Assembly: GCA_016182875.1 (NCBI GenBank)
Contig: JACPFQ010000003.1
Span: 1 to 58,560, forward strand
Origin: Candidatus Doudnabacteria bacterium
GTDB taxonomy: Bacteria; Patescibacteriota; Doudnabacteria; UBA920; O2-02-FULL-48-8
DNA: 58,560 bases
Direction of reading: 5' to 3'
The notes beneath the pieces are model-generated. The model was not told where the DNA came from, ran no database searches, and was given only the letters and a program-made list of their open reading frames with translations. How positions within the stretch are numbered: the stretch's first letter is position 1; every line of letters begins with the position of its first letter. Of this stretch, positions 6,841 to 58,560 are shown piece by piece. A program made the position numbers and the translations under genes.

Positions 6841-7040
6841 AGCAAAATCCCCGCTTTCGCGGGGATGGAAAATATTCTTAATTGCTCAGCGCGAGGACTA
6901 GCCGCAAAAACTAGCTTTCGCAGGACGGCTCATCCGGCCGAGAACCTTCGAGCGCATCCCGACGTTACGTCGGGATGACGACCGGTAGTTTTTGTCGGCT
7001 AGCCCGAGCGATCGCGGCAGGACCCGTCGCCTACTTATGA
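6841..7040. repeat. Composite GC-rich nested-palindrome repeat, related to 50520-50737
   Basis: Shares modules AAAACTAGC(T/C)TTCGCAGG, CGGCTCATCCGGCCGAGAAC, CCCGACGT(T/A)ACGTCGGG, CCGGTAGTTTT(T)GTC and GGCAGGACCCGTCGCCT with 50520-50737. The outer arms are inverted repeats. Confidence 0.7.
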
Positions 7041-25225: not shown

Positions 25226-25834
25226 CTATATTTTTCTTCGGAACTTGTATAACGATACCCCCAAAGTCATGCTTAAAGCCAGCAGGGAACTTAAAGACAT
25301 CGGCAATCCGCTTTTGGGCGAAACATAGGCTGAACGCTGCGCTGTCGCATCATTTTGCTGAGTTTCGCCCGCCACTTGAGGTTCGGCCACTGCCATGGTA
25401 ATTTCATTCCCAAACTTTACGCGCATCGTCAAATCCGAGTCATCGGGCAGATCATGCTTGACCTCTACCGTAACTTTCTTAGTTATGGCTCCTTTTGCGG
25501 GAATATCGAAAGGCGTCCAAATCAGCGACCCGGTTGTTGGGTTGTAATTGGCGCCCTCGGCATCAACTAAGCTGGCTGATTTCTGCACGTCAGAAATGTT
25601 TGCCTCAACCACGAAGCCTTCGAGCGCTTGCTTGTTGGGATTTTCCACGTTGAAGCTGAGAATCAAAGTGTCATTAGGCGAGACTTGATTAGCCTCAGCG
25701 TTTTTAGTCTGATTGAAAACCGAAACAGAATTGATTGCTTGCTGCTCAGGCTCTGTCCGTTTTTCCTGCCACCACCAAATCAACCCCAAAATAATGAGCA
25801 GAACTGCGACAGCGCCAATGGTCCTGTTGGTCAT
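25226..25834 (-). CDS. Small cell-surface protein with an SPKSG sorting-signal-like C-terminus
   Basis: 202 aa. N-terminal TM. C-terminus YVSPKSG plus hydrophobic stretch plus FRRKI. ATGA overlap with the upstream 805-aa gene. Shares a DUF11-like C-terminal domain with the large paralogs. Confidence 0.8.
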
Positions 25835-28248
25835 ATAGCGGCAAACTTTCTTCTTCGGTAAATGGTTAAAGCACCAACCGCGGCCAGGGCAAGCGTGAAG
25901 CTTAAGCTGGTTTTTGCCCCGGTTTTGGGAGAAACGAACGTCACGCCGGCGACCTGAGGTTGTCCGGGACGCGCTACAGTAACATCGACCCGGTTGCCGT
26001 AAATATTGGTCATCACGAAGTCAGTGCTTGCAGGGAAGGAACTGCGCACGCGGACCGAGAAGGTTTTTTCGACCCGGCCGCCGCCAGGCACGCTTACAGC
26101 CGGCCAGATCAGCCGTTTTCGCCCAACGTCGAAGGAAGCACCATCAAAGGTTATCAGTTCTGCCAATTCCAGTATATCGCCAATGTCATCCTCGACTACG
26201 AAGTTCTGGGCCACAACCGTTCCCCGATTCTCTACGATTAAGGTATAGATTATCACATCTCCGGGATTGGCGGCAACAGCAGTCGCATCCTGATTTTTGG
26301 TTTGATTGAAGGCCTTCTTGCTTATGTTAAGGTTGGTGCTGCCAGCGCCTCCGATGGTAACGGTTGCAGTATCGCTAATTTGGTTGAAGTTGTCGGCAAA
26401 CACCGTGGCGGCATTGACGTACGTGCCCGCTGTTGACCCAGCATTAGCTTCAAACGTAATGGTTCGGCTCGTTCCGGCAGTAAGGTTGCCCAATGATAAA
26501 TTATTGTTGAACAAATCTCCGCTGAAACTTGTTGAGCCATCCACGCGCAAAGTACCGCTTACGAACTGCAGGCCACTCGGCAAGCTGTCGAAAACTCGAA
26601 CATTTTGGCCGGTTGTGCTGCCGCTGTTGCTGACAACAATCCTAAACTCCACGCGCTCCCCGGAATTGACGTTAACCGATTCCTGGAATCCGGAGCCAGA
26701 CGCAATACTTCTCACTTGCTTGCTGACCGTAAGCGTTGTCTGGGCTGCGGTGAAGCCGCTTCGGTTGATGATGACGATGGCGTCGTCCGTGACCGAATTG
26801 GCGTTACTGGATGAAACCAGGGCAACATTGACCCACGACGATGAGCCGACCGGGAAACTGGTTTCGGACGCGGCTGTTGCGGTAAGCCTCACTGTTCGAG
26901 AACTGCCAGCATTTATGCTTCCGAAGTTGAATGAAGTCGAAGTGCTGCCTTGAGTTACTCCTGAATCCAGAGTGACGAAATTCAATGTGAAGTTCTGAGG
27001 CAATGTGTCGGTAACTACGACATCGTTGGCGGTGTTGCCGGTGGCAGTCACCACCAGCCTGAATTCAACCTGCTCACCCGGCCGGGCGGTAATTGATTTG
27101 GCAAACGCGCTTTGGCCGGCGGAAACGTTTCTGACTGTTTTCTCGACGCTTAGCGCGGCTTGACCTGGCGTTGGAGCCGGTGTGGGTGCCGCGGCTTGAG
27201 TGATTGTGCCGACATTCTGCTGAGTGGAGTCGCCGGAAACGATTCCAGCCTGGTTGACTCCGGCGATATTGTTGTTTCCGGTCTGGGTAATAGTCGAAGT
27301 ATTGGTGATATTGGTCGAGGTATTATTGGTGACATTGCAGGAATTACTTGCGTTATTGGCGCATGGAGAATTATTTATCGTAGTGGTTGGAGTTGGGCTG
27401 GGAGTTGGTGCAGGAGGCGGAGGAGGCGGAGGTGGTGCGCCAGGAATATCGTCGTTGGTCGCAACACAGGTGACGTTTTGGCCGACGGTAAGAGTTACGC
27501 TGCCATTCCCCTGGCAGGCTCCCCGCCAACCGTCAAGCTCATAACCGGTTCTTTGAGTTTCCGTAGCCTGATAATTTCCAGGGCTTAGAGTAACGCTCTG
27601 GCCGCTTCTGATTGTTTGTCCGCCGATTCTGAGTTCAAAGTCCCCTGGCTGGGCAGTGCCGCCGTTGTTATTGATGACTTCTTTAATCAAAGTAACTCTG
27701 GCCGTTGGGGTGGGTGTCGGGGTTGGGGTTGGGGTTGGGGTGGGAGTTGGAGTTGGCGTTGGAGTAGGTGTAGGCGTAGGTGTGGGAGTTGGTGTAGGTG
27801 CAGGGGTTGGTGTCGGAGTTGGAGTTGGCGTTGGAGTGGGTGTAGGGGTCGGGCCTGGACAATCACCGCCAGACAAATTGAACGAAAGGCTTTGGTCAGA
27901 GGTTAGAACAATGCCTTCAGTATCGAAAGCCTCATGGCCTTCCGGAACAATATGTAAATAGAAAACACCCGGACTAAGGCCTTCAAAGGTAAAGGAGCCA
28001 GAGCTGTCAGTGATGCCAAAAGCGCCGTCATCCGGGCCGTTGACAATGATGATTTGTGCGATCACCGGCCCGCAGGCATCCGTAACCGTAACAGTCAGGC
28101 GCAGAGGGCCATCGGTTGCTTGAATTGAACCTACAATGGTAACTGCAAGCACTGCAAGTAAAGCTAAAGCTGCTGTTTGAGCTATTTTTGTTTTGTTTAT
28201 CTTAAATTTTGTCTTAAATACGCTGGAAATGTGTTGAAAGTATTGCAT
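25831..28248 (-). CDS. Large surface protein (prealbumin-like domain, PT linker, DUF11-like repeats, SPKTG sorting signal)
   Basis: 805 aa. N-terminal TM/signal. CarboxypepD_reg-like domain ([30 protein letters not shown]). About 50 aa of PT repeats. C-terminus [31 protein letters not shown]. Confidence 0.85.
27706..27855. repeat. Low-complexity (CCN-ACN)n tract encoding the Pro-Thr linker
   Basis: GGTGTNGGNGTTGG-type periodicity on the plus strand. Encodes PTPTPTPT... on the minus strand and produces a spurious GV-repeat antisense ORF. Confidence 0.9.
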
Positions 28249-30079: not shown

Positions 30080-32359
30080 TCAAAGTGGATTTTCAATCGT
30101 TCTTTCTTTCCCTTTCCGTCTGTGGGCGATTATGTAGCCAGAGAGGGTTAGAATTGAGAGACCAAAACTGATAGTGGTTTTAGCGCCGGTTTTGGGGGCA
30201 ACAAAGGCGCCGGCAACTTGCGGACGAACAACATTTACATCCACGCGGTTGCCATAAACATTGGTCATGACCGAATCAGAGCCTGCCGGGAATGAATTGC
30301 GCACGCGGACCGAGAAGGTTTTTTCAACTCTTCCGAATGCCGGAACCACAACTGCCGGCCAGGTCAGCTTATGCCTGGCTAAATCAAATTGAGCGCCGCC
30401 AAAGTCCAGAAGTTCGGCAAGCTGCAAAACGTCAGCTAACTCATCTTCGACCACAAAGCTGTTGGAATTGGCATTGCCGCGGTTTTCTACGGTCAGAGTA
30501 TAAACTACTGCATCTCCCGGTCGAGCCGCAGTTGTGGAAACCCGCTTAGAGAGAACCAAATCGACATTGCCCCCGGCAACGATTGCTACGGGTTGAATGG
30601 TTGGGGTTGTGGCTGCGACAATTGAAGTATAAGTGATAATGAAACTCAAACTGCCATCGCAAGGCAGGGTCCCGCTTGTTGGCGTGACCGTCTCGATAAA
30701 ATTCGGCAAGTCTTCGATTTGAATGGAGTAGTTGCCGGCTCGTTGGTTGAAAAATATTCTTGAGCCGCGGCTGCTGAAACTGCCGCCGGGACCGGTGACG
30801 GTATATAAAGGCTCATCTCTGTTGGTCTGGATTCGTATCATGCCGCTGATGCACGCAGGAGACACAGACAACGCTGGCGCCTGCGAAACGCTGATTGGTG
30901 CGACGCTAACCGATTGCACTGTCGAGATATAGGTAATGATAAAGCTGACGTCACCGTTGCATGGCAAAGTAACGCTGGCCGGATTTGCCGTTTCGGTAAA
31001 ATTCGGCAAGTCTTCGATTTGAATGGAGTAGTTGCCGGCTCGCTGGTTGAAAAATATTCTTGAGCCGCGGTTGCTGAAACTGCCGCCGGGACCGGCGATC
31101 GAGTATGAAGCCAAGTCGTTATTGGTTCCCACTCTGATTATGCCGTTGGCGCACTCTGAAGATGGAGCCAGCGTTGTCGTGGTTGTTGAATTATCATCGT
31201 TGGTCGCTGTACAAGTGACGCTGTCATTGGCGCGCAGGGTTACACTGCCATCACCGTCACAAGCACCCCGCCAATTGACGAGGGTATAACCGGTTCTTTG
31301 GGTTTCGGTGGCCCGATAGTTGCCTGGAGCAAGCGTTACGCTTTGGCCTGATCTTAAAGTTTGGCCTCCAATCTTAAGCTCAAAGTCTCCCGGCTGGGCA
31401 GTGCCGCCGTTGTCGTTTCGCACTTCTTTGACCAGAGTGACTCTCGCTGAGCCTGCTGGTGCAGGAGCAACATCATCATTGGTTGCCAAACAGGTGACAT
31501 TCTGGCCGGCGCTCAGGCTGACGTTTCCATTCCCGTCGCAAGCTCCGCGCCAGCCCAAAAGCTGGTATCCGGTTCTTTGATTTTCAGTAGCCTGATAATT
31601 CCCGGGGTTCAAATTTACGGTTTGGCCGCTGCGAATGGTCTGGCCGCCTATACGCAATTCAAAATCTTCCGGCCGGGCCGTGCCGCCGTTGTCGTTTCGC
31701 ACTTCTTTGAGCAAAGTCACGCGCGCCTGAGTCGGAGGGCAGGTTCGAGTGAGGGTGACCTCATTGTTTCTGCCGCCTCCGCTGTTGGCATTGCCGCTGG
31801 CATTGTTATATCCGGATTTGGAAACGGTCCAGCCGATATCGGTATTGGCTTGCACGCCAAAATGGGCAAAGCCGTTGCCGTCTGTGGTGCGGCTCGCGCC
31901 ATTTCCAAAATCACGATTAATCGCGACGGCGGCATTCACCACCGGTTGGCTGTTGCAGGCGTCTCTAACATTAAACGTAAAGTCGACGAACGTTACTGGA
32001 CAGCCGTTGTTTCTCTGCAAGGCATAAGAAACAGTTTGGTCAGAAGTAAGAACTATCTCGTCAGTATCCATACTCTCATGATTGTCAGCGGTAATATGCA
32101 AATAAAACACTCCAGGATTTAAACCCTGGAAAGTAAACCGGCCGGAGCTGTCGGTGACACCAAAAGCGCCGTCATCCGGGCCGTTGACAATGATGATTTG
32201 GGCGATCACCGGCCCGCAATCGTCAGTGACATTAACCGTAAGATTTAGGCTCTCTTCTGCCTTGGTGAAGCCCATAAAGCTAACAACCAAAGCGATAACC
32301 AAGCCTAAAGCTGCGGTTTTAGCAAATCTGATTGATTTGTGAACAATAGGGTCTGCCAT
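30080..32359 (-). CDS. Large surface protein paralog (prealbumin-like domains, tandem internal repeats, APKTG sorting signal)
   Basis: 759 aa. The N-terminal domain is nearly identical at the DNA level to 25831..28248 over about 28020-28080 versus 32165-32225. Two ARVTL(L/V)KEVRNDNGGTA domains. Two roughly 100-aa repeats. C-terminus FVAPKTGAKTTISFGLSILTLSGYIIAHRRKGK. Confidence 0.85.
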   Translation of the reverse strand: MADPIVHKSIRFAKTAALGLVIALVVSFMGFTKAEESLNLTVNVTDDCGPVIAQIIIVNGPDDGAFGVTDSSGRFTFQGLNPGVFYLHITADNHESMDTDEIVLTSDQTVSYALQRNNGCPVTFVDFTFNVRDACNSQPVVNAAVAINRDFGNGASRTTDGNGFAHFGVQANTDIGWTVSKSGYNNASGNANSGGGRNNEVTLTRTCPPTQARVTLLKEVRNDNGGTARPEDFELRIGGQTIRSGQTVNLNPGNYQATENQRTGYQLLGWRGACDGNGNVSLSAGQNVTCLATNDDVAPAPAGSARVTLVKEVRNDNGGTAQPGDFELKIGGQTLRSGQSVTLAPGNYRATETQRTGYTLVNWRGACDGDGSVTLRANDSVTCTATNDDNSTTTTTLAPSSECANGIIRVGTNNDLASYSIAGPGGSFSNRGSRIFFNQRAGNYSIQIEDLPNFTETANPASVTLPCNGDVSFIITYISTVQSVSVAPISVSQAPALSVSPACISGMIRIQTNRDEPLYTVTGPGGSFSSRGSRIFFNQRAGNYSIQIEDLPNFIETVTPTSGTLPCDGSLSFIITYTSIVAATTPTIQPVAIVAGGNVDLVLSKRVSTTAARPGDAVVYTLTVENRGNANSNSFVVEDELADVLQLAELLDFGGAQFDLARHKLTWPAVVVPAFGRVEKTFSVRVRNSFPAGSDSVMTNVYGNRVDVNVVRPQVAGAFVAPKTGAKTTISFGLSILTLSGYIIAHRRKGKERTIENPL
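30697..31096. repeat. 300-bp-period tandem repeat inside the 759-aa gene
   Basis: Cores 30697-30796 and 30997-31096 differ at only two positions (30743 T/C and 30771 C/T), while the rest of each unit has diverged. Confidence 0.85.
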
Positions 32360-42782: not shown

Positions 42783-42802
42783 ATTGCTTAACTATCAGGG
42801 TT

Positions 42803-42930
42803 TAAGCGTTAGGCCGCAGCTACCCCCTCTTGGAACAAGAGGGGGTAGGGGGAGTTAGAACACAAGCGTTCTTACCATCTAACCCCCTCTTACTCCCCCT
42901 TGTTCCAAGGGGGAGTATCCGAACGCTTAT
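42803..42930. repeat. Roughly 125-bp MITE-like composite palindromic element (copy A, reverse orientation)
   Basis: Its reverse complement aligns by eye with 48355-48470 along the full length except a central stretch of about 19 nt. Contains CCCCCTCTTGGAACAAGAGGGGG and CTCCCCCTTGTTCCAAGGGGGAG hairpins. Confidence 0.8.
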
Positions 42931-42947
42931 CATAAAACACTTGAAAA

Positions 42948-43529
42948 TTAAAACAGCGCTGCTTGCCTGGTGAGCGGCTTTCTGACTTCCGGTTCGGGGA
43001 AGGAAATTTTGATTTCCTTGATCTCGAAGTAATCCTTAAACAAAAGTTTGCCGTACCTGCCTACATAGTCATAAAGTTCTTTGGTGATTTTGACGTCATC
43101 GGTGCAGTATTTTTTCAACTCCTCGATCCGGCCGGCCTTATACAGCTTCAAAGCTTCCAAGCCGTCGCCGCTCTTGCCCATGCCCAAGGTAGTTTGGGCC
43201 AAATTGTCCAGTTTGACCCGGTGGCCGATTAATTTCTCCGCCTCCGCCAATATATCCAGGGTCGGGATATCCTTGAGCGAAAAACTTATATACGGCTGCA
43301 GCACCGGGAAGTCAAAGTTAATGATGTTGAAGCCGATAACCTGGTCGGCTTCCGAAATCATTTCGCCGGCCCGGTAAAGCTGGTTTTCGTCGAAGCAGAA
43401 AAATTTATCCTGGGCGTAAGAGTATATCCCGCAAACCGAAACCTTGAGCAAGTGGTTGCGGTCCCGCCCGCCAACTTCGTCAAATGATTTTTGGGTTTCT
43501 AAATCGAGAACGATTTTATTTACTGCCAT
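42948..43529 (-). CDS. DEDD-type 3'-5' exonuclease (RNase H-like fold, PolB-exo/YprB-like)
   Basis: 193 aa. Exo I LDLET, Exo II GFNIINFD, Exo III YCTDDVKITKELY. Confidence 0.7.
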   Translation of the reverse strand: MAVNKIVLDLETQKSFDEVGGRDRNHLLKVSVCGIYSYAQDKFFCFDENQLYRAGEMISEADQVIGFNIINFDFPVLQPYISFSLKDIPTLDILAEAEKLIGHRVKLDNLAQTTLGMGKSGDGLEALKLYKAGRIEELKKYCTDDVKITKELYDYVGRYGKLLFKDYFEIKEIKISFPEPEVRKPLTRQAALF

Positions 43530-43571
43530 TTAGATTTCTTAAAATACCAATCAATTATAACATAGGTGATT

Positions 43572-43612
43572 TAAAAAATAAAAAAGACCTAGAAAACTTA
43601 ATCTCTAGGTCT
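43572..43612 (-). terminator. Rho-independent terminator
   Basis: Minus strand AGACCTAGA-GATTAAGTTT-TCTAGGTCT followed by TTTTTATTTTTT. Confidence 0.55.
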
Positions 43613-43778
43613 GCTCCTCCAGACCGTCTCCTGTAACTGCTAAAAACAATTATACATTAAAAAAGAGCTGACACTACCGGGTATCAGCCCAGCTTTCGCT
43701 CGGGGACAACAAACCCCAAGCATAATAGCGCAATCCAGACCCGTGAGATAATCCGCACGACATTGGCTTCCGGCAGGC

Positions 43779-44501
43779 CTAACTAGCTGACCTTGCCATT
43801 GCTTGCTTCAGCCTCCTGGCGGCACAGGCGTGGAGCTGAGAGACTCGCGATTCGTTAACCCCGATTGCGGCGCCTATCTGCCTCATGGTCTGCTCGCCGA
43901 AGTAGTAGAGAACAATCACCTTCTGCTCACGTGGTGGGAGCGTGGCGATGGCTCTACGGACCAGCTGGCGTACTTCCTGCCTTTCCAAAGCTTTATCAGG
44001 CTGCTCAGGCTCAGGCGGGACCAAGGACGAAGGCAACAGTGAAGAATCTACACCGTCGCTGTTTGTCAGAGGCGAGGTCGACTCGATAATGTTGATCCGG
44101 ATGATCCTTTTCTCGAGGCGGCGCTCGCTCGTCTGGAGACGTCTGGCTAGATCGGCCAGGGATGGTTCTTCGCCCAGCTCGCGCCTGAGTTCTTCACATG
44201 CCGCTTCCAGCTCACGACGCTGCCGGCGCACTCCTCGCGGCCAGGCGTCTTTGCGCAAGGCGTCAATCATGGCTCCGCGAATCCGGCGCTCGGCAAAAGT
44301 CTGAAACTTGATTCCCCGTCGCTTGTCGAATCGGCGTGCTGCGTCAATCAACCCCAGCACTCCGTCTTGAACCAGGTCGTTCACTTCAACCGAATACGGC
44401 ATGGTTGCAGCCACCCGACGAGCGAGCTGCTCCACGAACGGAATACATTCCAACACTCTTGCTTCCTGTTCCTCAGGAAGCAACATGGTCCGTGCGCTCA
44501 T
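43779..44501 (-). CDS. FliA/WhiG-type (group 3) sigma-70 family sigma factor (GC-rich island 5)
   Basis: 240 aa from MSARTM. AGGAGG lies 6 nt upstream. Region 2 DLVQDGVLGLIDAARRFD and TFAERRIRGAMIDALR. Region 4 LPPREQKVIVLYYFGEQTMRQIGAAIGVNESRVSQL. Confidence 0.85.
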   Translation of the reverse strand: MSARTMLLPEEQEARVLECIPFVEQLARRVAATMPYSVEVNDLVQDGVLGLIDAARRFDKRRGIKFQTFAERRIRGAMIDALRKDAWPRGVRRQRRELEAACEELRRELGEEPSLADLARRLQTSERRLEKRIIRINIIESTSPLTNSDGVDSSLLPSSLVPPEPEQPDKALERQEVRQLVRRAIATLPPREQKVIVLYYFGEQTMRQIGAAIGVNESRVSQLHACAARRLKQAMARSAS

Positions 44502-44581
44502 GTAAATCCTCCTGATGAACGTGAATAAACGAATTATAACACAAACGCCGACAACTATGGTATAATGGTCAAGCAAATTTC

Positions 44582-44626
44582 ATGCAAAGAACCTTAATCA
44601 AAGACACAATCAACCTAAGCAAATAG
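44582..44626 (+). pseudogene. Duplicate aspS 5' end, fragment 1
   Basis: Encodes MQRTLIKDTINLSK*, compared with the genuine AspRS N-terminus MQRTLTKDTINKTG at 45558. Confidence 0.6.
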
Positions 44627-44629
44627 CTT

Positions 44630-44735
44630 GTAGTTTAGAGTCTTACAGTAACGAAGCCGGTATAGTCTAAAGATGACGTCAGACGTCCAACCTAAACGAT
44701 ACTGGTTTCGTAACCTCTTAACCCTAAACTAAATA
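44630..44735. repeat. Roughly 100-bp imperfect palindrome between the two aspS 5' fragments
   Basis: TAGTTTAG (44631-38) pairs with CTAAACTA (44724-31). AGTAACGAAGCCGGTAT pairs with ATACTGGTTTCGTAACC, including G-U pairs. The centre contains GACGTCAGACGTC. Confidence 0.45.
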
Positions 44736-44749
44736 AGTTTACGAAAATA

Positions 44750-44868
44750 ATGCAGCGGACACTCATAAAAGACACAGTTAATAAAATTGGCCAAACCGTG
44801 CTTCTAAAAGGCTGGGTAAACATCAGGCGCGATTCATCCACAAGCTGATGTTCTCCAATTGCGCGCTT
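44750..44868 (+). pseudogene. Duplicate aspS 5' end, fragment 2 (frameshifted)
   Basis: Encodes MQRTLIKDTVNKIGQTVLLKGWVNIRRDSSTS*, compared with the genuine MQRTLTKDTINKTGGAVLLKGWVNVRRDHGKLIF. Nucleotide similarity continues to about 44868 with a 1-nt indel. Confidence 0.75.
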
Positions 44869-44893
44869 AAATAATTTGTTTTATCATATCTAT

Positions 44894-45145
44894 ATGAGAC
44901 AATCTACAATTACCAAAATTAAAAATGGCAAAATAACCCTGCCTAAGGACCTACAAAAAGAATGGAAAGAAGGCGAGGTGCTTTTCATGCGCTCATCAGG
45001 CGGCTTTCTCATCAAGTCCATTACTCCTCCTTCCCTGTCAGCTCTACGACCGAAACTAAAAAAATTAGGCAAACTTGTATCCAGCAAGGATATTGATGAC
45101 GCCGTCAGCTGGGCCCGACAAAAAACCTATGCTGGTCGTACTTGA
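44894..45145 (+). CDS. AbrB/MazE/SpoVT-fold antitoxin-like protein
   Basis: 83 aa from MRQSTITKIKNGKITLPKDLQKEWKEGEVLF, a swapped-hairpin-like motif. Overlaps the PIN gene by 17 nt. Confidence 0.65.
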   Translation: MRQSTITKIKNGKITLPKDLQKEWKEGEVLFMRSSGGFLIKSITPPSLSALRPKLKKLGKLVSSKDIDDAVSWARQKTYAGRT

Positions 45146-45542
45146 TACTAACGTTTTGATATCAGCGCTGCTTTATAAGAAACGTCTGGGTAAAATAGGT
45201 GATTTGATTGAACAAGGGAGCTTGACTCCCTGTTTTATTGCGTCAACCTGGAGAGAACTAGAGAGTGTCCTTCGTTACCCCAAGTTTCAGCCCAAAATAA
45301 AATCGCTAAATACAACGCCTGAAGAAATCGCTCAATCACTCAGTTTGCAAAGCGCGATATTTCCCGACCCTAACAATGTTCCCAAGTTAGTCACACATTC
45401 TGGCGACAATTTTATCCTTGCTACAACTATTGCCGCAAAAGCTTCTTATATCATTACTGGCGACAAAGAGTTGCTTGCCCTTAAAAAATTTAAAAACACG
45501 TCTATTATTTCTCCAGTTCAATTCACCCAGATTGTGTTATAA
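45129..45542 (+). CDS. PIN-domain toxin-like ribonuclease
   Basis: 137 aa. MLVVLDTNVLISAL (first acidic residue) and a later ITGDKELL motif. Typical PIN toxin of a type II TA pair. Confidence 0.8.
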   Translation: MLVVLDTNVLISALLYKKRLGKIGDLIEQGSLTPCFIASTWRELESVLRYPKFQPKIKSLNTTPEEIAQSLSLQSAIFPDPNNVPKLVTHSGDNFILATTIAAKASYIITGDKELLALKKFKNTSIISPVQFTQIVL

Positions 45543-45557
45543 TATCTATACTTTTCT

Positions 45558-46988
45558 ATGCAACGAACCCTAACCAAAGATACTATCAACAAAACCGGCG
45601 GCGCTGTCCTTTTGAAAGGCTGGGTAAACGTGCGCCGCGACCACGGCAAGCTGATTTTTTTGGATTTGCGCGACATGAGCGGACTGGTGCAGTTGGTCGT
45701 GAACCCAAAAGTCTCAAACGAAGCGCATAAGAACGCTTCCGAAGTCCGGAATGAATACGTACTCGAAGTTGAAGGCTTGGTTAAACAGCGCGACGCCAAG
45801 CTTATAAATCCGAACATCGAAACCGGCAAAATTGAGATCGAGGTCACAAAGCTAAATGTGATAAGCAGGTCCAAAGCATTGCCGTTTGATATCACTTCCG
45901 ATACGACAAACGTTTCGGAAGAAGTACGGCTCAAATACCGGTATCTTGATCTACGCAACGAGCGAATGAAAAAAAATCTCAGACTGCGCCACAAGGTGAT
46001 TCACTTTATCCGCAACTATCTCACGGATCAAGGATTTACCGAAGTCCAAACGCCGATACTCACCAAATCAACGCCGGAAGGAGCCCGCGATTATTTGGTG
46101 CCGTCCAGGATTTATCCGGGCAAATTCTTCGCATTGCCCCAGTCGCCTCAGCAATACAAGCAGCTGTTGATGGTGGCCGGCTTGGAAAAATATTTTCAGA
46201 TAGCACCCTGCTTTCGCGATGAAGACGCCAGAGCCGACCGGAGTCCCGGTGAATTTTACCAGCTTGACCTTGAAATGTCTTTTGTTACCCAAAACGACAT
46301 TTTAGAATTAACTGAAGACCTATATACCAAACTCGTCGAAGCCATTACACCAGAAAAACGAATTACTCAAAAACCCTGGCCCCGAATAAGCTATAAGCAA
46401 GCGAAAGAAAAATACGGTAACGATAAACCTGACCTACGCAAGGACAAAGACGATCCCAACGAATTAGCTTTTTGCTGGGTACTCGACTTTCCGCTTTTTA
46501 CCGAGCAGACCGAGGAAGACTTTTTCCACGGCTCAGGTGAAAGCAAGTGGGCTCCTTCGCATCATATGTTTACATCTCCGCATCCCGATGATCTAGCGCT
46601 TCTTGACAAGGATCCCGGCAAAGTCCGCGGCCTTCAGCATGACTTGGTCCTAAATGGCGTGGAAATCGGCGGCGGCAGCATTCGGATTCATGACCCCCAA
46701 ATTCAGGAAAAAATATTCGATCTAATCGGATTCACGGACGAGCAAAAAAATCAGTTCGCCCACATGCTGGAAGCGTTTGCTTACGGCGTTCCGCCCCACG
46801 GCGGCATCGCGCCGGGCATTGACCGCTTCGTCCGAATTTTGGCCGGTGAGGATAAAATCGCGGAAGTCATCGCCTTTCCCCTTTCCGGCGCTGTGCGGGA
46901 TCCCTTAATGGGGTCGCCATCCGAAGTCTCGCCCAAACAGCTCAAGGAATTGCATCTTAAAGTGGATTTGCCAAAAGAGAAAAAATAG
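45558..46988 (+). CDS. aspS: Aspartate--tRNA ligase lacking the bacterial GAD insertion domain
   Basis: 476 aa. OB-fold N-terminus, motif 2 FRDEDARADRSPGEFYQLDLEMSF, motif 3 GGIAPGIDR. DKPDLRKDKDDPNELAFCWVLDFPLF joins directly where E. coli AspRS has an insertion of about 130 aa. Confidence 0.95.
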   Translation: MQRTLTKDTINKTGGAVLLKGWVNVRRDHGKLIFLDLRDMSGLVQLVVNPKVSNEAHKNASEVRNEYVLEVEGLVKQRDAKLINPNIETGKIEIEVTKLNVISRSKALPFDITSDTTNVSEEVRLKYRYLDLRNERMKKNLRLRHKVIHFIRNYLTDQGFTEVQTPILTKSTPEGARDYLVPSRIYPGKFFALPQSPQQYKQLLMVAGLEKYFQIAPCFRDEDARADRSPGEFYQLDLEMSFVTQNDILELTEDLYTKLVEAITPEKRITQKPWPRISYKQAKEKYGNDKPDLRKDKDDPNELAFCWVLDFPLFTEQTEEDFFHGSGESKWAPSHHMFTSPHPDDLALLDKDPGKVRGLQHDLVLNGVEIGGGSIRIHDPQIQEKIFDLIGFTDEQKNQFAHMLEAFAYGVPPHGGIAPGIDRFVRILAGEDKIAEVIAFPLSGAVRDPLMGSPSEVSPKQLKELHLKVDLPKEKK

Positions 46989-47060: not shown

Positions 47061-47525
47061 ATGCCAATATCTAAATCTCTCGAAAAACTATTAAAGCAAA
47101 ACAAAGTCAAATACGAACTAGCGCAACACCGCAAGGTCTTCACGGCTTTTGATGCGGCCGAAACCCAGCATATCAAGGAGTCGGAAGTCGCCAAGGCCGT
47201 CTTGCTTAAGGGAAAGAAAAATCTTTATTTGGCCGTGCTCCCTGCGGGAAACAACTGCGATTTTAAAGCCTTGTCAAAACTCGCCGGAGACAAGGTTTCA
47301 ATGGCAAAAGAAAAGGATATTAATACAAAGCTCAAGACAAAAATTGGTCTGATTGCGCCGTTTGGGTCGTTGTTTAAAATCCCTGTATTCCTCGATACAA
47401 AACTTTTAAAAAACAAGAAGCTCAATCTGCCGGCGGGCTCTTATACGGAATCAGTCGTATTGGCGACGAAGGATTATCTTAAATTAGAAAATCCGGTTTT
47501 AGGTAACTTTAGCATTAAGAAATAA
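47061..47525 (+). CDS. YbaK/EbsC-type aminoacyl-tRNA editing (deacylase) domain protein
   Basis: 154 aa. AKAVLLKGKK.LYLAVLPAGNNCDFKAL...GLIAPFG pattern. Context is next to aspS. Confidence 0.75.
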   Translation: MPISKSLEKLLKQNKVKYELAQHRKVFTAFDAAETQHIKESEVAKAVLLKGKKNLYLAVLPAGNNCDFKALSKLAGDKVSMAKEKDINTKLKTKIGLIAPFGSLFKIPVFLDTKLLKNKKLNLPAGSYTESVVLATKDYLKLENPVLGNFSIKK

Positions 47526-47612
47526 CTCCCCCGCAAAGCCCGACGCAATTTCACCCCCTCTTAAATTAAGAGAGGGTGTCAAAGCCCAATCCAAAGCGGG
47601 GGCGTTATAACA
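47526..47612. repeat. Nested palindromic repeat
   Basis: Outer CCCCCGC...GCGGGGG arms enclose CACCCCCTCTTAAATTAAGAGAGGGTG (47552-47578), which is the same module as 10019-10045. Confidence 0.65.
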
Positions 47613-48337: not shown

Positions 48338-48354
48338 GATTATTTAAAGCCTTA

Positions 48355-48470
48355 GGATCCTCCCCCTTGGAACAAGGGGGAGTTAGAGGGGGTTAGAGGC
48401 AAAGGTTCTTTGTGATCTAACTCCCCCTACCCCCTCTTATTCTAAGAGGGGGTAGCTACAGCCGAATGCT
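48355..48470. repeat. Roughly 125-bp MITE-like composite palindromic element (copy B, forward orientation)
   Basis: TCCCCCTTGGAACAAGGGGGA and CCCCCTCTTATTCTAAGAGGGGG hairpins. Aligns with the reverse complement of 42803-42930. Confidence 0.8.
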
Positions 48471-50519: not shown

Positions 50520-50737
50520 TTTAAGTATTTAACCGCGAGGCGCAGTTGCAAAACTAGCCTTCGCAGGCCGGCTCATCCGGCCGAGAACGCAGGGGCGACG
50601 GGTGGCGTGGTTTTTGGGGACCCCGACAGCGCGCAACGATAGTGAGCACTGGCGGGGTAAAAACCACGGCAGGACCCGTCGCCTGCCCCGACGTAACGTC
50701 GGGGACAGCCGGTAGTTTTGTCCAACTGCGCCGAGCG
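50520..50737. repeat. Roughly 215-bp GC-rich nested palindrome (MITE-like or structured RNA), related to 6841-7040
   Basis: Outer arms GGCGCAGTTGCAAAACTAGCC and GGTAGTTTTGTCCAACTGCGCC. Inner arms GGCGACGGGTGGCGTGGTTTTT and AAAAACCACGGCAGGACCCGTCGCC. Local hairpins CGGCTCATCCGGCCG and CCCCGACGTAACGTCGGGG. Confidence 0.75.
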
Positions 50738-54370: not shown

Positions 54371-54448
54371 GGCGCTATCGTCTAGCCTGGCCTAGGACAC
54401 ACGGTTCTCATCCGTGGAACTCGGGTTCGAATCCCGATAGCGCTGCCA
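54371..54448 (+). tRNA. tRNA-Glu (anticodon CTC) with encoded CCA
   Basis: Cloverleaf folded by hand. Acceptor GGCGCTA/TAGCGCT, D-arm TCGTCTAGCCTGGCCTAGGAC (Glu-like), anticodon stem CACGG/CCGTG with loop TTCTCAT, T-arm TCGGGTTCGAATCCCGA, then G-CCA. Confidence 0.9.
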
Positions 54449-54496: not shown

Positions 54497-55126
54497 CTAT
54501 TCCGCAGCCACTTCTGCCGGCGCTTCAGTTGTTTCCACGACCGGTTCTTCAGCCGCCTCGGTTGTTTCCTCGGTCGGAGCCTCGCCAGAGCTTTCAGTCG
54601 TTGTAGCGTCCGGAATGACATCAGAGGGCTCTTCTGTTCCTGTTTGGTCATTGTCATTGTTATTGTCATCGTTTACCTCAATACTCTCCCCAACCACCTC
54701 CCCATTGTTATCTGTTATCTGTTCGCTGCCTGCCCCGGCCGAAGCGTCGGGGTTATCTGACGCTGATTCCTGTGTTACCCCGCATTCTCCCGCCGTATGG
54801 CTCAAACTGCCGCTTTTGACCTTCACGCAATAAATTTCGCCGGTATCTTCATCTATCAATTCTAACCCCTTGGTCCTGACCTTGGCCGCGATAATAAGTC
54901 CATTCTCATCAATGCTCCACTTGCCGGAGATTGAGGTAATGGCTTTGACATTCAGTATGCTAAAGCCGGACATGTCTATATCCTTCTCATTGACAATTTT
55001 TTCGCAAGAGGATAACTCCCCCTCACCCCCTCTTATATTAAGAGGGGGTTCCTCGGAAGGAAGTCCTCCCCCTTGGAACAAGGGGGAATTAGAGGGGGTT
55101 AGATTCGAGCAAGAAGCACTCGCCAC
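54497..55126 (-). CDS. Probable detached C-terminal part of the tail-fibre-like protein (GKWSIDENG domain plus acidic T/E-rich tail)
   Basis: 209-aa ORF with a GTG start inside repeat 55015-55115. The first roughly 40 aa (SNSPLFQGGGLPSEEPPLNIRGGEGELS) are repeat-encoded. An in-frame TAG lies 6 codons upstream of the start. Confidence 0.5.
   Translation of the reverse strand: MASASCSNLTPSNSPLFQGGGLPSEEPPLNIRGGEGELSSCEKIVNEKDIDMSGFSILNVKAITSISGKWSIDENGLIIAAKVRTKGLELIDEDTGEIYCVKVKSGSLSHTAGECGVTQESASDNPDASAGAGSEQITDNNGEVVGESIEVNDDNNNDNDQTGTEEPSDVIPDATTTESSGEAPTEETTEAAEEPVVETTEAPAEVAAE
55015..55115. repeat. Permuted copy of the MITE-like palindromic element at the junction of two ORFs
   Basis: CCCCCTCTTATATTAAGAGGGGG and TCCCCCTTGGAACAAGGGGGA hairpins plus TTAGAGGGGGTTAGA, matching halves of 48355-48470. 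Confidence 0.75.
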
Positions 55127-58100
55127 ATCCAGCTTTTGGAATACCTATACTTTGGCCGGATTCGGTCATTTTCATGGCATAACCGGGGATAGTCTTTGAA
55201 ACAGTGATGTGATCACCCGGCAGTATTGGCCCATTTTCTTTCGAGACCTTGACCGGTATTTGGCCAATCAAACCAACGATTACATTACCGGTTTCCTGAC
55301 CTTCAGGAGGAAGGTTGCCAACAAATGCCGAACGGTCAGATATCACCCCTAATAAAAGGACAGAATCGTCCGCCTTCACAACTCGACCGTTGTCATTGAT
55401 CGATACTAAATCGCCCGCTTCCAAGCTTAAATCTCGTGTTGGGAAATATTCCGCGAAGTCCGCACCGCCGGACTCGTATGCCACGGCGTTGTTGTTCAGA
55501 CGTACACGTCCCACGCCGGTCCCGTTGCTGGACGTCGTCGATCCGGCAAAGAAGTTAATGAATCGCCTTGTGCTTCCAGTTGAAGCAGTTCCGGATCGTA
55601 GGGATAAAACAGTTCCTCCGTCACTTGTGTTGCTGTTGAAAAAGGTACTGATTGTGGAATCTGATGCTCCGTCGCCGACCACGTTGAGAGTGCTGTTCGG
55701 CCCCGTCGTCCCGATGCCGACATTGCCGGCACTTCCATCAACAAATACAATGGTGTTCTGCTTTCCATCGGCGATCCTTAGATCCCTGAACTGCGTAGCA
55801 CCCGCCTGATAACCTACGTAGTTGAGAAACAACTCCGAATTGGCATTGGTTTCATATTGAGCGTTTATTGTGTTGCCGGTCGAGATATATACTTCACCAA
55901 ACCCGGCGCCACTGGTTGAGAATCCAGCCAAACCGGTTGAAGCCTTTCTCACGTCCAATATACCTGCAGGGCTAGTCGTCCCGATGCCGACGTTGCCGGA
56001 GGAAGTCAGAGCCAAGACATTGGTATAACCCCCTCCATTGACTTGGGAGGAGAAGTCCAGGTAGCTGGTGGGATTAGCCGTTCCTTGGACTGGCACCACC
56101 TGGGTAATCCAGTCTACTGTCTGGGAAGCGGCTGTGGCATCTGTCTTCCAGCCCTGGCCGGTTAGTCTTAATCTGGGAGAATACTGCTGGGCGGAGGCTT
56201 GGGCAGCGGTGGTGTTGGTGAGGATGTAGCCATCAGCTGAGGTGACACCAATGGCTGTTCTGGTCAGGGTTTCCGTGGTAGTCACAGCTGGGGTGGTCAG
56301 GGTAGGTGAGGTGGCCAAGACCAGATTACCCGTCCCGGTCTGATTGGTCGTGGTCAAAGCCGTGCCTCCTCCTAGAGCCAAGGAAGTGCCAGTAGCCACA
56401 CCCAAGACTGGAGTTACTAATGTCGGAGTATTGGCAAAGACCAGAGCGCCACTGCCGGTCTCATCAGTGATGGCCGAGATTAAATTAGCCGAGGAAGGAG
56501 TGGCCAGCAAAGTGGCTATGCCTGTGCCTAGGCCACTGACTCCGGTGGAGATGGGCAAGCCGGTAGCGTTGGTTAAAACAGCTGAGGCGGGAGTGCCTAA
56601 AGCTGGGGTAACCAAAGTTGGCGAAGTGGCAAACACCAACGCCCCGCTCCCTGTCTCATCAGTGATGGCCGCAGCCAGGGCCGCTGATGTCGTTGGCGAG
56701 CACCCGGTGCAGCTGGTGACTGTCAAGGCGTTGAAGGTCGGAGAAGCTGCTACTTTGACACTCTGGTCAAACCAGTCATTGAGGGTAGGATTGCCTGAGA
56801 GAGTAATGGTTCTAGCAGCATCCCCAGTGGTAATAGTTAAGGTTCTGCCTGCGGTTAGGTTCTCAGTATTGGCTATGGTTAAGTCAAAGGCTCCGGTGCC
56901 TGTGGATCTGATACCTAAGGAGGTTAATCCTGTATGAGTGCCTCCATTGATGGTTGGTGAGGTTAAGGTCTTGTTAGTTAAGGTGTCTGTGGTGGCTCGG
57001 CCCACATAAGTATCTGTGCCCTGGAAGGTGATGGTGGTGGAGTCAGTCCCTGAGAAAGCCAGGGTGTTGTTGGCAGTTAAAGTCTTGCCATCAGCAATGG
57101 TTAGGGTGGAGCCGGTGGCTGGAGCGGTGATGGTGAGTTTGTTAATGGTTGTGGCAGTAGCCACTCCCAGGGTTGGGGTAACTAGGGTTGGGGAGGTGGC
57201 AAAGACCAATGCTCCAGACCCCGTCTCATCAGAGATGATTCCAGCTAACTGAGCTGAAGTGGTGGCGGCAAAGACTGAGAGGTTGTTAGAAGTGTAAGCC
57301 ACGGTGCCTCCTGTACCAAAAGCTATGGATGAGGCATCGGTCCCGGTAAGGGTTAAAGTATTGGAAGCAGTTAAGGTCTTCCCAGCTCCCAGGGTCAAGG
57401 TTCCGGTTCCTGTAGTTATGGTATTGCCATTGACTGTGTTGACATAGAGAGCTCTCCATTTCTTGGAAGAAGAGCCTAAGTCATAAGTGTTGTCTGTGGC
57501 TGGGATGATATGGCTGCTGACTTGGGCTACGTAAGTAACCGTGTCAGTGGAGGCATCTCCCAGGGTGGTAGAATCCTGGACTGTGAGGTTAGCCGTGATT
57601 TGGGTGGTTCCCTGGGTGGTGGTGCCGGTTAATACCAGGGAGTTGCCATAGATGTCTCCCTCGGAGTCAACCAGGAACTTGATGGTTCCTCCGACTGCGG
57701 CAGAGATGAGGTTGCCGTCAGCGATGGAGGAGGCGGGGTTGATGTAAATGGTGCCGTCTGAGGCATTGGAGGTGCCGGCGGGAAAAGAAGTAAAGACATG
57801 AGGAAGGGTGGGAACCTTGGTAAAGGTAGACTGGGCGGTGGCGGTAAAGGTGGAGTTGGTGATGGTTAGGCCATTGAGGGTGGTGGTTCCTGAGACTGTG
57901 AGGTTTCCTGTGATGGTGGAGTTTCCTGAGACTGAGAGGCTGTTGAGAGTAGAAGTCCCTCCGCTTTGGGTGAAGTCTGAGGTGATGGTGAGCTTTTCCG
58001 AGGTAATGTCCTTGGCTCCGAAATAGGTCGTGCCTCCCAAGGTTCCTACCGGGGAGGTGGCTGGGGCAGTGGGTAAGACGTAGCTTATGGAGTATCCTTG

Positions 58101-58560
58101 TGGGCCTTGGATGCCGTCCTTGCCTGGGTCTCCCTTGAGTATGGTCTTAAGCTCTTGAGACTTGCCAATTAAATCAACGAGCTCGGTTTCAGTCAGGGCT
58201 GCTTTGACAGTATAGTTGTTGACCTCCCGGATGATGTGGGTGGCTTGGATGTCTGCTCTGTTCCCCTCATCCGTCCGGTCATTCGACCGGACAAGCCCCC
58301 GGCGGGAAATCAGGGAGGGAATTTCTTCTCCCTGTGGGAGAAGGGAATTCCCCTCTCCCATAGGGAGAGGGGTCAGGGGTGAGGGGTTCCCAAGCCATTC
58401 CCCAGCAATTCTTCCCAGCTCTTGAGTTCTTATGCCTAATTCATTCTCAAGATATCCTCGAATCTTCTGGGCTACGACTTGCTGAATGTCTGTGTGCGTG
58501 AGTCTGGCCAATACTGGGGTTGCGACGATCAAGCAGGCCAAAATCGCGGCAGCTGTTTGA
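55089..58560 (-). CDS. Giant collagen-like / tail-fibre-like repeat protein (5' end outside the window)
   Basis: The reading frame is open to the window edge, where it reads QTAAAILACLIVATPVLA (signal/TM-like). Collagen-like KGDPGKDGIQGPQG. At least four copies of DETGSGALVFA(T/N)(S/T)PTLVTP. GNVGIGTT(S/G)P motifs are typical of tail-fibre-like proteins. Confidence 0.85.
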   Translation of the reverse strand, partial: QTAAAILACLIVATPVLARLTHTDIQQVVAQKIRGYLENELGIRTQELGRIAGEWLGNPSPLTPLPMGEGNSLLPQGEEIPSLISRRGLVRSNDRTDEGNRADIQATHIIREVNNYTVKAALTETELVDLIGKSQELKTILKGDPGKDGIQGPQGYSISYVLPTAPATSPVGTLGGTTYFGAKDITSEKLTITSDFTQSGGTSTLNSLSVSGNSTITGNLTVSGTTTLNGLTITNSTFTATAQSTFTKVPTLPHVFTSFPAGTSNASDGTIYINPASSIADGNLISAAVGGTIKFLVDSEGDIYGNSLVLTGTTTQGTTQITANLTVQDSTTLGDASTDTVTYVAQVSSHIIPATDNTYDLGSSSKKWRALYVNTVNGNTITTGTGTLTLGAGKTLTASNTLTLTGTDASSIAFGTGGTVAYTSNNLSVFAATTSAQLAGIISDETGSGALVFATSPTLVTPTLGVATATTINKLTITAPATGSTLTIADGKTLTANNTLAFSGTDSTTITFQGTDTYVGRATTDTLTNKTLTSPTINGGTHTGLTSLGIRSTGTGAFDLTIANTENLTAGRTLTITTGDAARTITLSGNPTLNDWFDQSVKVAASPTFNALTVTSCTGCSPTTSAALAAAITDETGSGALVFATSPTLVTPALGTPASAVLTNATGLPISTGVSGLGTGIATLLATPSSANLISAITDETGSGALVFANTPTLVTPVLGVATGTSLALGGGTALTTTNQTGTGNLVLATSPTLTTPAVTTTETLTRTAIGVTSADGYILTNTTAAQASAQQYSPRLRLTGQGWKTDATAASQTVDWITQVVPVQGTANPTSYLDFSSQVNGGGYTNVLALTSSGNVGIGTTSPAGILDVRKASTGLAGFSTSGAGFGEVYISTGNTINAQYETNANSELFLNYVGYQAGATQFRDLRIADGKQNTIVFVDGSAGNVGIGTTGPNSTLNVVGDGASDSTISTFFNSNTSDGGTVLSLRSGTASTGSTRRFINFFAGSTTSSNGTGVGRVRLNNNAVAYESGGADFAEYFPTRDLSLEAGDLVSINDNGRVVKADDSVLLLGVISDRSAFVGNLPPEGQETGNVIVGLIGQIPVKVSKENGPILPGDHITVSKTIPGYAMKMTESGQSIGIPKAGCGECFLLESNPL
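58272..58390. repeat. Three in-frame hairpin modules inside the 5' region of the tail-fibre-like gene
   Basis: TCCGGTCATTCGACCGGA, CTTCTCCCTGTGGGAGAAG and CCCCTCTCCCATAGGGAGAGGGG. Together they encode NPSPLTPLPMGEGNSLLPQGEEIPSLISRRGLVRSNDR. Confidence 0.65.

Follow-up and report, generated by a model that had tools for sequence, protein, structure and literature searches.

We analyzed the region upstream of the aminoacyl-tRNA synthetase gene aspS in a metagenomic contig assigned to Candidatus Doudnabacteria (JACPFQ010000003.1), which was taken whole as the window (58,560 nt). Two partial copies of the aspS 5′ end, fragments 1 and 2, precede the live gene, and the three aspS starts, all in one orientation, form direct repeats that lie within 1 kb. 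Read along the forward strand, the locus consists of an exonuclease gene and a sigma factor gene, both on the minus strand, followed by a promoter region designated P0, fragment 1, a palindrome, fragment 2, an antitoxin-like open reading frame (ORF), a PIN_3 toxin gene and aspS. A preliminary description made from the letters of the window had proposed serial insertion into the aspS 5′ end, and all of the elements that it described lie at, or a few bases from, the coordinates it gave. From the comparisons below we conclude that the finding is real and that the locus is a genuine insertion hotspot of a fairly ordinary kind. The features of the locus are the following:

42948-43529, minus strand: 3′-5′ exonuclease gene (RNase_H_2 / DnaQ-like, Pfam match), the conserved left border of a variable interval
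43779-44501, minus strand: FliA/WhiG-family sigma factor gene (TIGR02479, 196 bits against a cut-off of 189.6; Sigma70 r2/r3/r4)
44543-44581, plus strand: P0, the native aspS promoter region, with a -10 element TATAAT at 44561-44566, 15 nt before the ATG of fragment 1
44582-44626, plus strand: fragment 1, a displaced aspS start, a 14-codon ORF reading MQRTLIKDTINLSK and then a stop
44631-44731, no strand: imperfect 101-nt palindrome with arms at 44631-44679 and 44683-44731 and the center GACGTCAGACGTC
44750-44866, plus strand: fragment 2, reading MQRTLIKDTVNKIGQTVLLKGWVNIRRD, with codons 1-28 intact and then an indel; similarity to aspS extends to +115/117
End junction of fragment 2, plus strand: ...CCAATTGCGCG and then CTTAAAT, closing the second displaced aspS start
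44894-45145, plus strand: antitoxin-like 83-aa ORF overlapping the toxin start, with a -10-like TATCAT 8 nt upstream
45129-45542, plus strand: PIN_3 toxin gene (PF13470, E = 1.5e-14; TIGR00305, 70.5 bits against a cut-off of 29.15)
45532-45550, plus strand: current aspS promoter TTGTGTTATAATATCTATA, with its -10 element at 45538-45543
45558-46988, plus strand: aspS, 476 aa (tRNA-synt_2, E = 6.6e-116, with an OB anticodon domain; class II core)

The aspS gene begins at 45558, as the preliminary description had it, and is full-length and intact, with 80-84% identity to its orthologues. Fragment 1 is identical to nt 1-33 of aspS at 28 of 33 positions (44582-44614), above all 200 shuffles of the window, the best of which reached 24 of 33. 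Fragment 2 is 69% (69.2%) identical to aspS over 117 nt, interrupted by one indel, and blastn E values for this match range with the search space from ~1e-8 to 2e-11. The proposal that both fragments are partial copies of the aspS 5′ end thus withstood formal alignment. The aspS-like sequence of fragment 1 is clear over nt 1-33 and probably continues in degraded form as far as about +58 (44641), beyond the end first given for this copy. A related locus (L161) carries a stub whose first 28 nt match fragment 1 at 27 positions.

A search for exact copies of the AspS sequence of the window gave no match; relatives were recruited through searches with the PIN and AspS homologues, and 178 related loci were compared (designated by L numbers). 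The nearest species-level genomes share only 64-68% AspS identity with the window; protein searches led to a clade at 75-84% AspS identity that includes Ca. Doudnabacteria. The backbone in this clade runs HIT, HtrA, MGMT, a 235-aa protein, Lgt and the exonuclease (minus strand), then a variable interval, then aspS, a ybaK-like gene, scpA and scpB. At L177 and L178 the site is empty, with the exonuclease and aspS head to head and 68 nt between them, and the same context was seen in the 24 contigs read. This establishes the ancestral state as a head-to-head exonuclease and aspS about 68 nt apart.

The empty site identifies what lies in front of fragment 1. The 29 nt around its -10 element (AACGCCGACAACTATGGTATAATGGTCAA) are identical at 23 of 29 positions to the native aspS promoter of L177 (AATGCCAACAATTATGGTAAAATAATCAA), with a score of 17 against 8.5 ± 1.6 in shuffled sequence, and a score as high arose in 1 of 500 shuffles. 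The equivalent of P0 in L161 scored 18 against L177, a value matched by none of 500 shuffles. The region 5′ of fragment 2 has no match to the native promoter, and the sequences upstream of the three ATGs differ. Because P0 is homologous to the native promoter of an empty site, fragment 1 together with P0 is, by this homology, the original aspS promoter and start, displaced upstream by about 1 kb from the live gene. This agrees with the earlier suggestion that an older start had been pushed upstream.

The differences between the copies indicate where the other starts came from. Fragment 2 departs from aspS at 6 first, 3 second and 17 third positions of codons; of the altered codons, 11 are synonymous and 6 non-synonymous. 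Compared with the AspS gene of L161, fragment 2 has 15 synonymous and 3 non-synonymous codon differences, and it encodes a consensus-like N-terminus. An aspS stub in a distant genome of the candidate phyla radiation (CPR), L002, differs from its live aspS in the same manner (7, 2 and 14). Uniform decay is rejected by our own chi-square test at p ~0.002 for fragment 2 and ~0.009 for L002. Fragment 2 also has more in common with the aspS start of L166 (75.7% identity) or L164 (74.8%) than with the live gene next to it (69.2%). Since the differences lie mostly on third codon positions, the copies diverged as working genes, stub and live start in different lineages, which makes them imported alleles and not a decaying local duplication. 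We conclude from these alignments that at least two successive insertions took place within the first ~120 nt of aspS, and that each replaced the gene start.

The segment between the two fragments holds the palindrome of roughly 100 bp that had been described there. It measures 101 nt, its arms are complementary at 37 of 47 aligned positions, and its alignment score of 19 lies beyond all of 1000 shuffles (7.5 ± 1.5, maximum 13). As RNA it folds at -36 kcal/mol (z = -4.8), and its left outer arm overlaps the degraded tail of fragment 1. Allowing up to 3 mismatches, it is single-copy in the window, and no copy was found in the 178 related loci or in IMG/VR, where the lone pattern match fell inside a coding region and was set aside as chance. 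We considered a miniature inverted-repeat transposable element or a palindromic repeat family, and the multiple copies expected of either were not found within the 58 kb of genome available. An integron attC site was also rejected: the arms hold CAGTAAC and GTTTCGT, a misfit to RYYYAAC ... GTTRRRY, and there is no integrase. The motif GACGTCNGACGTC is common to the palindrome and the end of the L002 cargo, with a rough estimate of ~0.08 for its occurrence by chance. We can only call the palindrome what remains of the first inserted piece. A search of Rfam at E ≤ 1 across 43400-45800 matched no known RNA, and the sole tRNA of the window lies at 54371.

Elsewhere in the window a family of G/C-rich intergenic palindromic repeats forms hairpins of the type CCCCCTCTT..AAGAGGGGG (42788-42951, 47522-47577, 48340-48470, 9989-10075 and 55012-55104). 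These lie between convergent or consecutive genes, including lgt/exonuclease, ybaK/scpA and scpA/scpB. They look like repetitive extragenic palindromes or terminators and are unrelated to the palindrome at 44631-44731.

The second inserted segment carries a toxin-antitoxin (TA) pair, which the preliminary description had called AbrB/PIN. The PIN assignment stands, on PF13470 and TIGR00305. The AbrB label is weakly supported, as the 83-aa ORF matches PF04014 (MazE_antitoxin) at a sub-threshold E of 0.078 and has no PDB or NCBIfam match. A single-sequence AlphaFold2 model, with a pLDDT of 54 and too poor for a fold search, gives a beta-beta-alpha-beta-beta arrangement and then helices, so an AbrB/MazE-type fold is possible on this prediction. 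The pair has the PIN domain and the small, overlapping upstream gene, conserved with the toxin, that are expected of a PIN_3 module, and it is present in L161, L162, L163 and L172. The PIN proteins of the window and L161 share 81% amino acid identity, and their genes differ 16, 8 and 41 times at the three codon positions, which indicates purifying selection on the PIN gene. The pair is probably a working addiction module.

Two further observations concern this cassette. A 19-nt repeat at 44876 and 45532 was considered as an att or arm site and rejected; it is the local promoter consensus with an (extended) -10 element, and its motif TTGTGTTATAAT also precedes the sigma gene on the opposite strand and is not kept upstream of the L161 antitoxin. 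At L163 (1162-1817, logan SRR30280117_289004) the PIN_3 TA homologue directly follows an ORF-less group II intron (RF02005, 107 bits) and lies upstream of folD. There, the intron's domain V/VI (RF00029) ends at 1817 and overlaps the antitoxin ATG at 1813.

The final codons and stop of the PIN_3 gene overlap the promoter that now drives aspS. This promoter bears a weak likeness to the native promoters of L164 and L177, and we conclude that it is of the native aspS-promoter type and was imported with the TA segment. In aspS, in the stubs and in the antitoxin gene the -10 element lies just 8-15 nt before the ATG with no Shine-Dalgarno (SD) sequence, and their leaders are short or absent. Within aspS, positions +88 to +119 (45645-45676) form a 32-nt stretch that is identical between the window and L161, in genes that are 72% identical overall. 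The block encodes HGKLIFLDLRD, and the third positions of codons 32-38 are unusually conserved among nine clade members. The junction of fragment 2 (+117) coincides with the end of this block and that of the L002 stub (+99) falls inside it. No mosaic tracts were found within aspS of the nine clade genes.

As had been suggested, the aspS upstream region was compared across relatives for alternative cargo, and the interval proved to be hypervariable. The exonuclease also forms its left border in L164, L167, L168, L170, L171, L172 and L177, and the cargo between it and aspS differs in most of the relatives examined:

L164/165: NYN gene and a DinJ/YafQ TA pair
L166 and L171: unknown genes
L167: sigma and KGG genes
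L168/169: purL/purQ
L170: purS
L161: long sigma-like protein, KGG, an aspS fragment and the same PIN TA pair
L172: NYN, sigma, a small ORF, an aspS relic and the PIN TA pair

Most relatives lack any copy of the fragments, and the nearest ones (L164, L166, L167, L170, L171 and L177) are among them. A conserved leader, which would have argued against insertion scars, is thus not what the relatives show.

Two relatives share the scars of the window in part. L161 (SRR22388048) has a P0-type promoter, one stub, the same TA pair and aspS. After its first 28 nt this stub continues with more aspS-like sequence and an internal deletion, and it ends at the same ...ATTGCGC... junction before the TA pair. 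In L172 (GCA_964372625.1) the relic consists of aspS +61 to +117 only (5242-5310), with no promoter or start; it is 81% identical to fragment 2, carries the same GATTCA indel, and is followed by the TA pair and aspS. The scars are thus old and common to other lineages, not strain-specific.

The three scarred lineages (window, L161 and L172) are not grouped by AspS identity, and the degree of divergence changes along the locus. Between the window and L161 the center of the TA segment is 93-97% identical and its edges 73-82%. Third positions diverge by 13% in the TA center, by 36-45% at the TA edges and by 57-66% throughout aspS. The start of aspS is no exception: codons 1-29 differ at 18 of their 29 third positions, a divergence on a par with that of the remaining gene. 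Between the window and L172 the 5′ part of the antitoxin gene is 80-85% identical and the PIN part only 45-60%. Because the TA pair is less diverged than aspS codons 1-29, the present start did not arrive recently together with it. These comparisons show that the block of relic and TA pair was exchanged between lineages after they had split, and that between the window and L161 the TA cassette is younger than the aspS start beside it.

Scars of similar architecture were found at two other sites. In the distant, GC-rich CPR genome of L002 (JAUSKB010000016.1, 8001-8591) a 99-nt in-frame stub of the aspS start, 77% identical to the live gene, is followed by 490 bp of cargo and then by an intact aspS. 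The stub and the live start are each other's best match. The cargo has 42% GC in a context of 62-65% GC, starts with a 14-nt tandem repeat (GCACACAGAGGCTT, two copies) and a hairpin, and contains a terminator and an orphan 82-aa ORF that has no Pfam or NCBIfam match. The scar adjoins comEC and an MBL-fold gene. At L152 (Ga0209518_1000742) an acyltransferase (PlsC-like) gene has nt +12 to +110 repeated 1.4 kb upstream as a 98-nt copy (127-224 and 1608-1705, 96% identical), with a DUF397 protein and an alpha/beta hydrolase encoded between copy and gene. The repeat has sharp boundaries at both ends, and we regard this scar as a young one of the same type at another gene. Neither insert encodes a recombinase. 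A 379-nt repeat ending at aspS in L118 was rejected as irrelevant, since it is a paralogous pair of response-regulator genes.

To account for these scars we tentatively favor conservative, att-like (Campbell-type) integration as the mode of recombination, with a probability of about 0.45. Small elements would integrate through an attachment region that mimics the promoter and aspS positions 1 to ~117. The incoming DNA, from a related lineage, would bring an aspS promoter of its own plus about 100 nt from the start of the gene and would cross over with the resident aspS near the +88 to +119 block, so that the essential gene stays intact but begins with imported sequence. What stands upstream as a dead stub is the promoter and start of the former resident, fragment 1 with P0 from the first event and fragment 2 afterwards. 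The first insertion would have decayed to the 101-nt palindrome; the second would be the PIN_3 TA cassette, kept by purifying selection and later exchanged between related lineages. Loss of the integrase would leave remnants that resemble cis-mobilizable elements (CIMEs), and aspS would now be transcribed from the promoter overlapping the PIN stop codon. The stubs and the palindrome probably have no function. Att-like integration is favored because the stubs are short, alike in size (98, 99 and 117 nt) and start at the start codon or close to it, and because both independent aspS junctions (+99 and +117) lie in or at the end of the conserved block. This stub geometry is as expected if the crossover took place at the gene-internal end of the repeat, as in the prophage e14.

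Several results weigh against att-like integration. The interval contains no integrase, as previously noted, and none is encoded in the 20 mid-sized ORFs of the window. Our survey for integrases and islands covered 12 clade loci and 160 other CPR aspS loci with flanks of ±8 kb. No integrase was found in the variable interval of the 12 clade loci and no integrase-bearing version of the insertion in the 160 further loci or in IMG/VR, and no repeat-flanked island lay at aspS in those 160 loci or elsewhere in ~2 Mb of CPR loci. No element or phage with an aspS start fragment was found in IMG/VR or among GenBank phages, nor was the antitoxin found in IMG/VR. Two aspS-start matches in IMG/VR were full-length aspS genes and were discarded, as was a GenBank phage match, P-EibC, which is flanking E. 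coli aspS beside yecD. Alignment of the copies in search of an att-like core gave a longest identical run of only 15 nt between fragment 2 and aspS, and the junctions differ, at about +33-58 for fragment 1, +99 for L002 and +117 for the window, L161 and L172. In L163, where the TA homologue lies upstream of folD, no stub of folD is present, so members of this family need not leave scars. The non-functional relic beside the TA pair is only 19% diverged between the window and L172, and later homologous exchange of the block of relic and TA pair fits better here than repeated att integration. The preliminary description had proposed repeated site-specific integration; the serial layout with replacement starts is borne out, and site-specificity is a plausible hypothesis, given the differing junctions and the lack of an integrase-bearing version in the loci surveyed.

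In the main rival reading no integrase would ever have been involved. In homology-facilitated illegitimate recombination (HFIR), linear DNA from a relative whose cassette already lay upstream of its aspS would recombine homologously through the aspS part, and its heterologous end would be joined illegitimately within the resident 5′ region, displacing the start in situ and leaving a stub. Such a route agrees with the lack of an integrase in any of the five scarred loci, with an imported promoter of native aspS type, with varying junction positions, with the clear recombination mosaicism at the TA locus (window, L161 and L172), and with imported starts that come from close relatives (the L002 pair as best mutual matches at 77%, the L152 pair at 96%). 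CPR genomes encode ComEC, one copy of which lies beside the L002 site. HFIR has been documented for naturally competent bacteria (PMC3240628), and partial duplications can arise by transformation (PMC3784515). HFIR joints, however, should scatter along the 1.4-kb gene, yet all four independent stubs are at most 120 nt long and start at the start codon or close to it. If joints were distributed uniformly, the three aspS junctions would have a probability of (120/1430)^3, or ~6e-4, by a rough estimate of our own that ignores later deletion. HFIR also leaves unexplained why both exactly placeable aspS junctions fall at the conserved +88 to +119 block, why the young L152 repeat is as sharply bounded at both ends as an att repeat, and why no mosaic tracts occur within aspS of the nine clade members. 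We therefore hold HFIR to be the less probable route, though one that deserves serious weight.

The remaining explanations fare worse. That the copies arose in place, by slippage or unequal crossing-over that duplicated the promoter and 5′ end, followed by decay and by independent insertion of the palindrome and TA pair, is suggested by direct repeats in one orientation within 1 kb and by the frequency of partial duplications as mutational events. Copies decaying in place should change at every codon position alike, whereas the differences favor synonymous third positions; fragment 2 resembles the aspS starts of other lineages more than that of its neighbor; the regions 5′ of the three ATGs differ, with the native promoter only at fragment 1; and the L002 cargo is foreign in composition (0.42 against 0.62-0.65 GC). 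We regard local duplication as very unlikely. A regulatory role, in which the fragments serve as leader peptide or upstream ORF and the palindrome as an attenuator-like RNA element that controls the TA pair or aspS, is also highly improbable. Fragment 1 does retain a promoter-like -10 element, an ATG and a short ORF and is nearly identical to its L161 counterpart (27 of 28), and the palindrome folds well as RNA, but the fragments are missing from most relatives, including the nearest, the stub ORFs of the window and L161 differ in length and end, L172 has lost promoter and start, and the palindrome is unique to the window and without an Rfam match. A metagenome assembler could in principle have concatenated strain variants of the aspS start in what is, after all, an entire metagenomic contig. 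Copies that are only 69-85% identical and separated by unique sequence are not the product of de Bruijn strain collapse, and the same architecture occurs in independent assemblies from other samples (L161 and L172), so we find an assembly artefact scarcely credible.

Whatever the route, the phenomenon belongs to a known kind, the duplication of a target end at an integration hotspot with decayed remnants. In E. coli K-12 MG1655 the start of the e14 feature falls within icd, 165 nt short of its end, and beyond the prophage stands an icdC pseudogene of 165 nt. As in our locus, integration occurred inside a conserved housekeeping gene, a replacement end was carried in, and the displaced end persists as a short pseudogene at the far junction. 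Unlike our locus, e14 is a 15-kb element that replaces a 3′ end and has kept its integrase and excisionase genes, intE and xisE; here the 5′ end and promoter were replaced, the inserts measure 0.13-0.7 kb in two layers, and no recombinase was found.

Integrative and mobilizable elements (IMEs) are reported to insert into housekeeping genes at the 3′ end, less often at the 5′ end, and to leave these genes intact; once decayed, they persist as integrase-less CIMEs, which accumulate by tandem accretion (PMC5704250). The Streptococcus CIMEs (Pavlovic 2004, reviewed in PMC5704250) are likewise integrase-less remnants that keep attL and attR made of the target-gene end. In CIME accretion, too, new arrivals beside the intact gene push older remnants outward, and TA modules are typical cargo. 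As expected of CIME remnants, our locus has significant copies of the target end, an intact target gene and an empty site in relatives. The streptococcal sites differ in having intact, integrase-bearing integrative and conjugative elements or IMEs at the same positions, with excision shown, whereas the repeats here are diverged (69-85%), junctions lie at several positions, and no intact integrase-bearing element was found at the site in the surveyed loci or in IMG/VR.

Tycheposons are described as integrating serially, with older elements driven further inward and partial copies of the target left behind (10.1101/2020.12.28.424599). The Prochlorococcus tycheposon islands resemble our locus as hypervariable islands beside a conserved gene, with integrase-less cargo among partial targets in a streamlined genome. 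They differ in targeting the 3′ part of tRNA genes, in including hundreds of integrase-bearing elements and in spanning many kb; here the 5′ end of a protein gene is targeted and the island is below 2 kb. HFIR shares with our locus one homologous crossover in a conserved gene, one illegitimate joint, the lack of any element-borne enzyme and a relative as donor. Unlike what we see, it normally deletes or replaces recipient DNA with joints at arbitrary microhomologies, and it gives no reason to expect short stubs, alike in size, that run from the start codon to a conserved block.

To our knowledge such elements have not been characterized in the host, a lineage of the Patescibacteria. The target itself, the aspS 5′ end, is unreported, and the phylum is poorly explored. 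Three independent examples occur in ~2 Mb of CPR sequence, namely aspS in the Doudnabacteria clade, aspS in L002 and the acyltransferase gene in L152, and of all aspects of the locus this recurrence of integrase-less scars alone may open a new direction. As a speculation that we consider distinctly unlikely, Patescibacteria could carry a class of tiny, integrase-less cassettes of 0.1-1.4 kb that swap gene starts within the first ~100 nt of conserved genes. Such cassettes would hold TA pairs, orphan genes or hydrolases, bring their own promoter and start, and be flanked by gene-start repeats of ~100 nt. They would move through trans-acting or host recombination, with a logic like that of integron cassettes or CIMEs, aimed at the 5′ ends of essential genes.

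Mobile DNA and the entry of genes into tiny CPR genomes are poorly known, and this hotspot is a rare case whose history is legible at the level of single bases, from an empty site through a stranded native promoter and two layers of imported starts to a TA pair that is still exchanged between lineages. An essential aminoacyl-tRNA synthetase gene is able to accept foreign DNA repeatedly in its coding start, provided that the incoming DNA restores the gene. The signature of a short 5′ stub, small cargo and an intact gene could be mined across CPR genomes and could reveal a recombinase or show that none is needed. For annotation, both stubs are pseudogene fragments, and the end of the PIN gene contains the aspS promoter.

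The sigma factor gene had been described as an island abutting fragment 1, within the layout ascribed to repeated integration. It does abut fragment 1, but it does not belong to the aspS series. No third aspS copy lies to the left of the gene, where the best matches (16-20 of 33) are at chance level. Its product shares 71% amino acid identity with the L172 sigma factor at the same position, comparable with the neighboring exonuclease (74%). From this divergence and the missing far-side copy we conclude that the sigma gene is a separate and older intergenic insertion to the left of the native promoter. Its GC content is 58%, against 48% for the contig. A strong GGAGG SD sequence is found at the GC-rich sigma and KGG genes (window 44502-44520, L161 2822-2835, L172 4906-4925); next to the SD-less aspS, stubs and antitoxin, this fits a foreign origin of the sigma and KGG genes. 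The insertion is bracketed by a 10-nt direct repeat, AATTATAACA (43553-43562 and 44532-44541). Both copies are -10 regions of minus-strand promoters, of the exonuclease and sigma genes, and the empty site of L177 has one. The sigma insertion may thus have duplicated or replaced a promoter, or the repeat may equally be chance, given the promoter consensus.

Other repeats and ORFs of the window lie away from the locus. A 56-nt direct repeat containing ...AAAACTAGC.TTCGCAGG.CGGCTCATCCGGCCGAGAAC occurs at 6890-6945 and 50534-50588, 43 kb apart, with 86% identity. At the contig end a 331-aa ORF (8-1003, minus strand) has an HTH_38 domain and no catalytic domain at E ≤ 1e-5; HTH_38 is the N-terminal helix-turn-helix typical of IS30-family transposases. 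Two large paralogous ORFs, at 25831-28248 (805 aa) and 30080-32359 (759 aa), share 64-74% nucleotide identity and contain internal repeats. Further internal repeats (56386-57273) lie in a 1150-aa ORF at 55089-58541.

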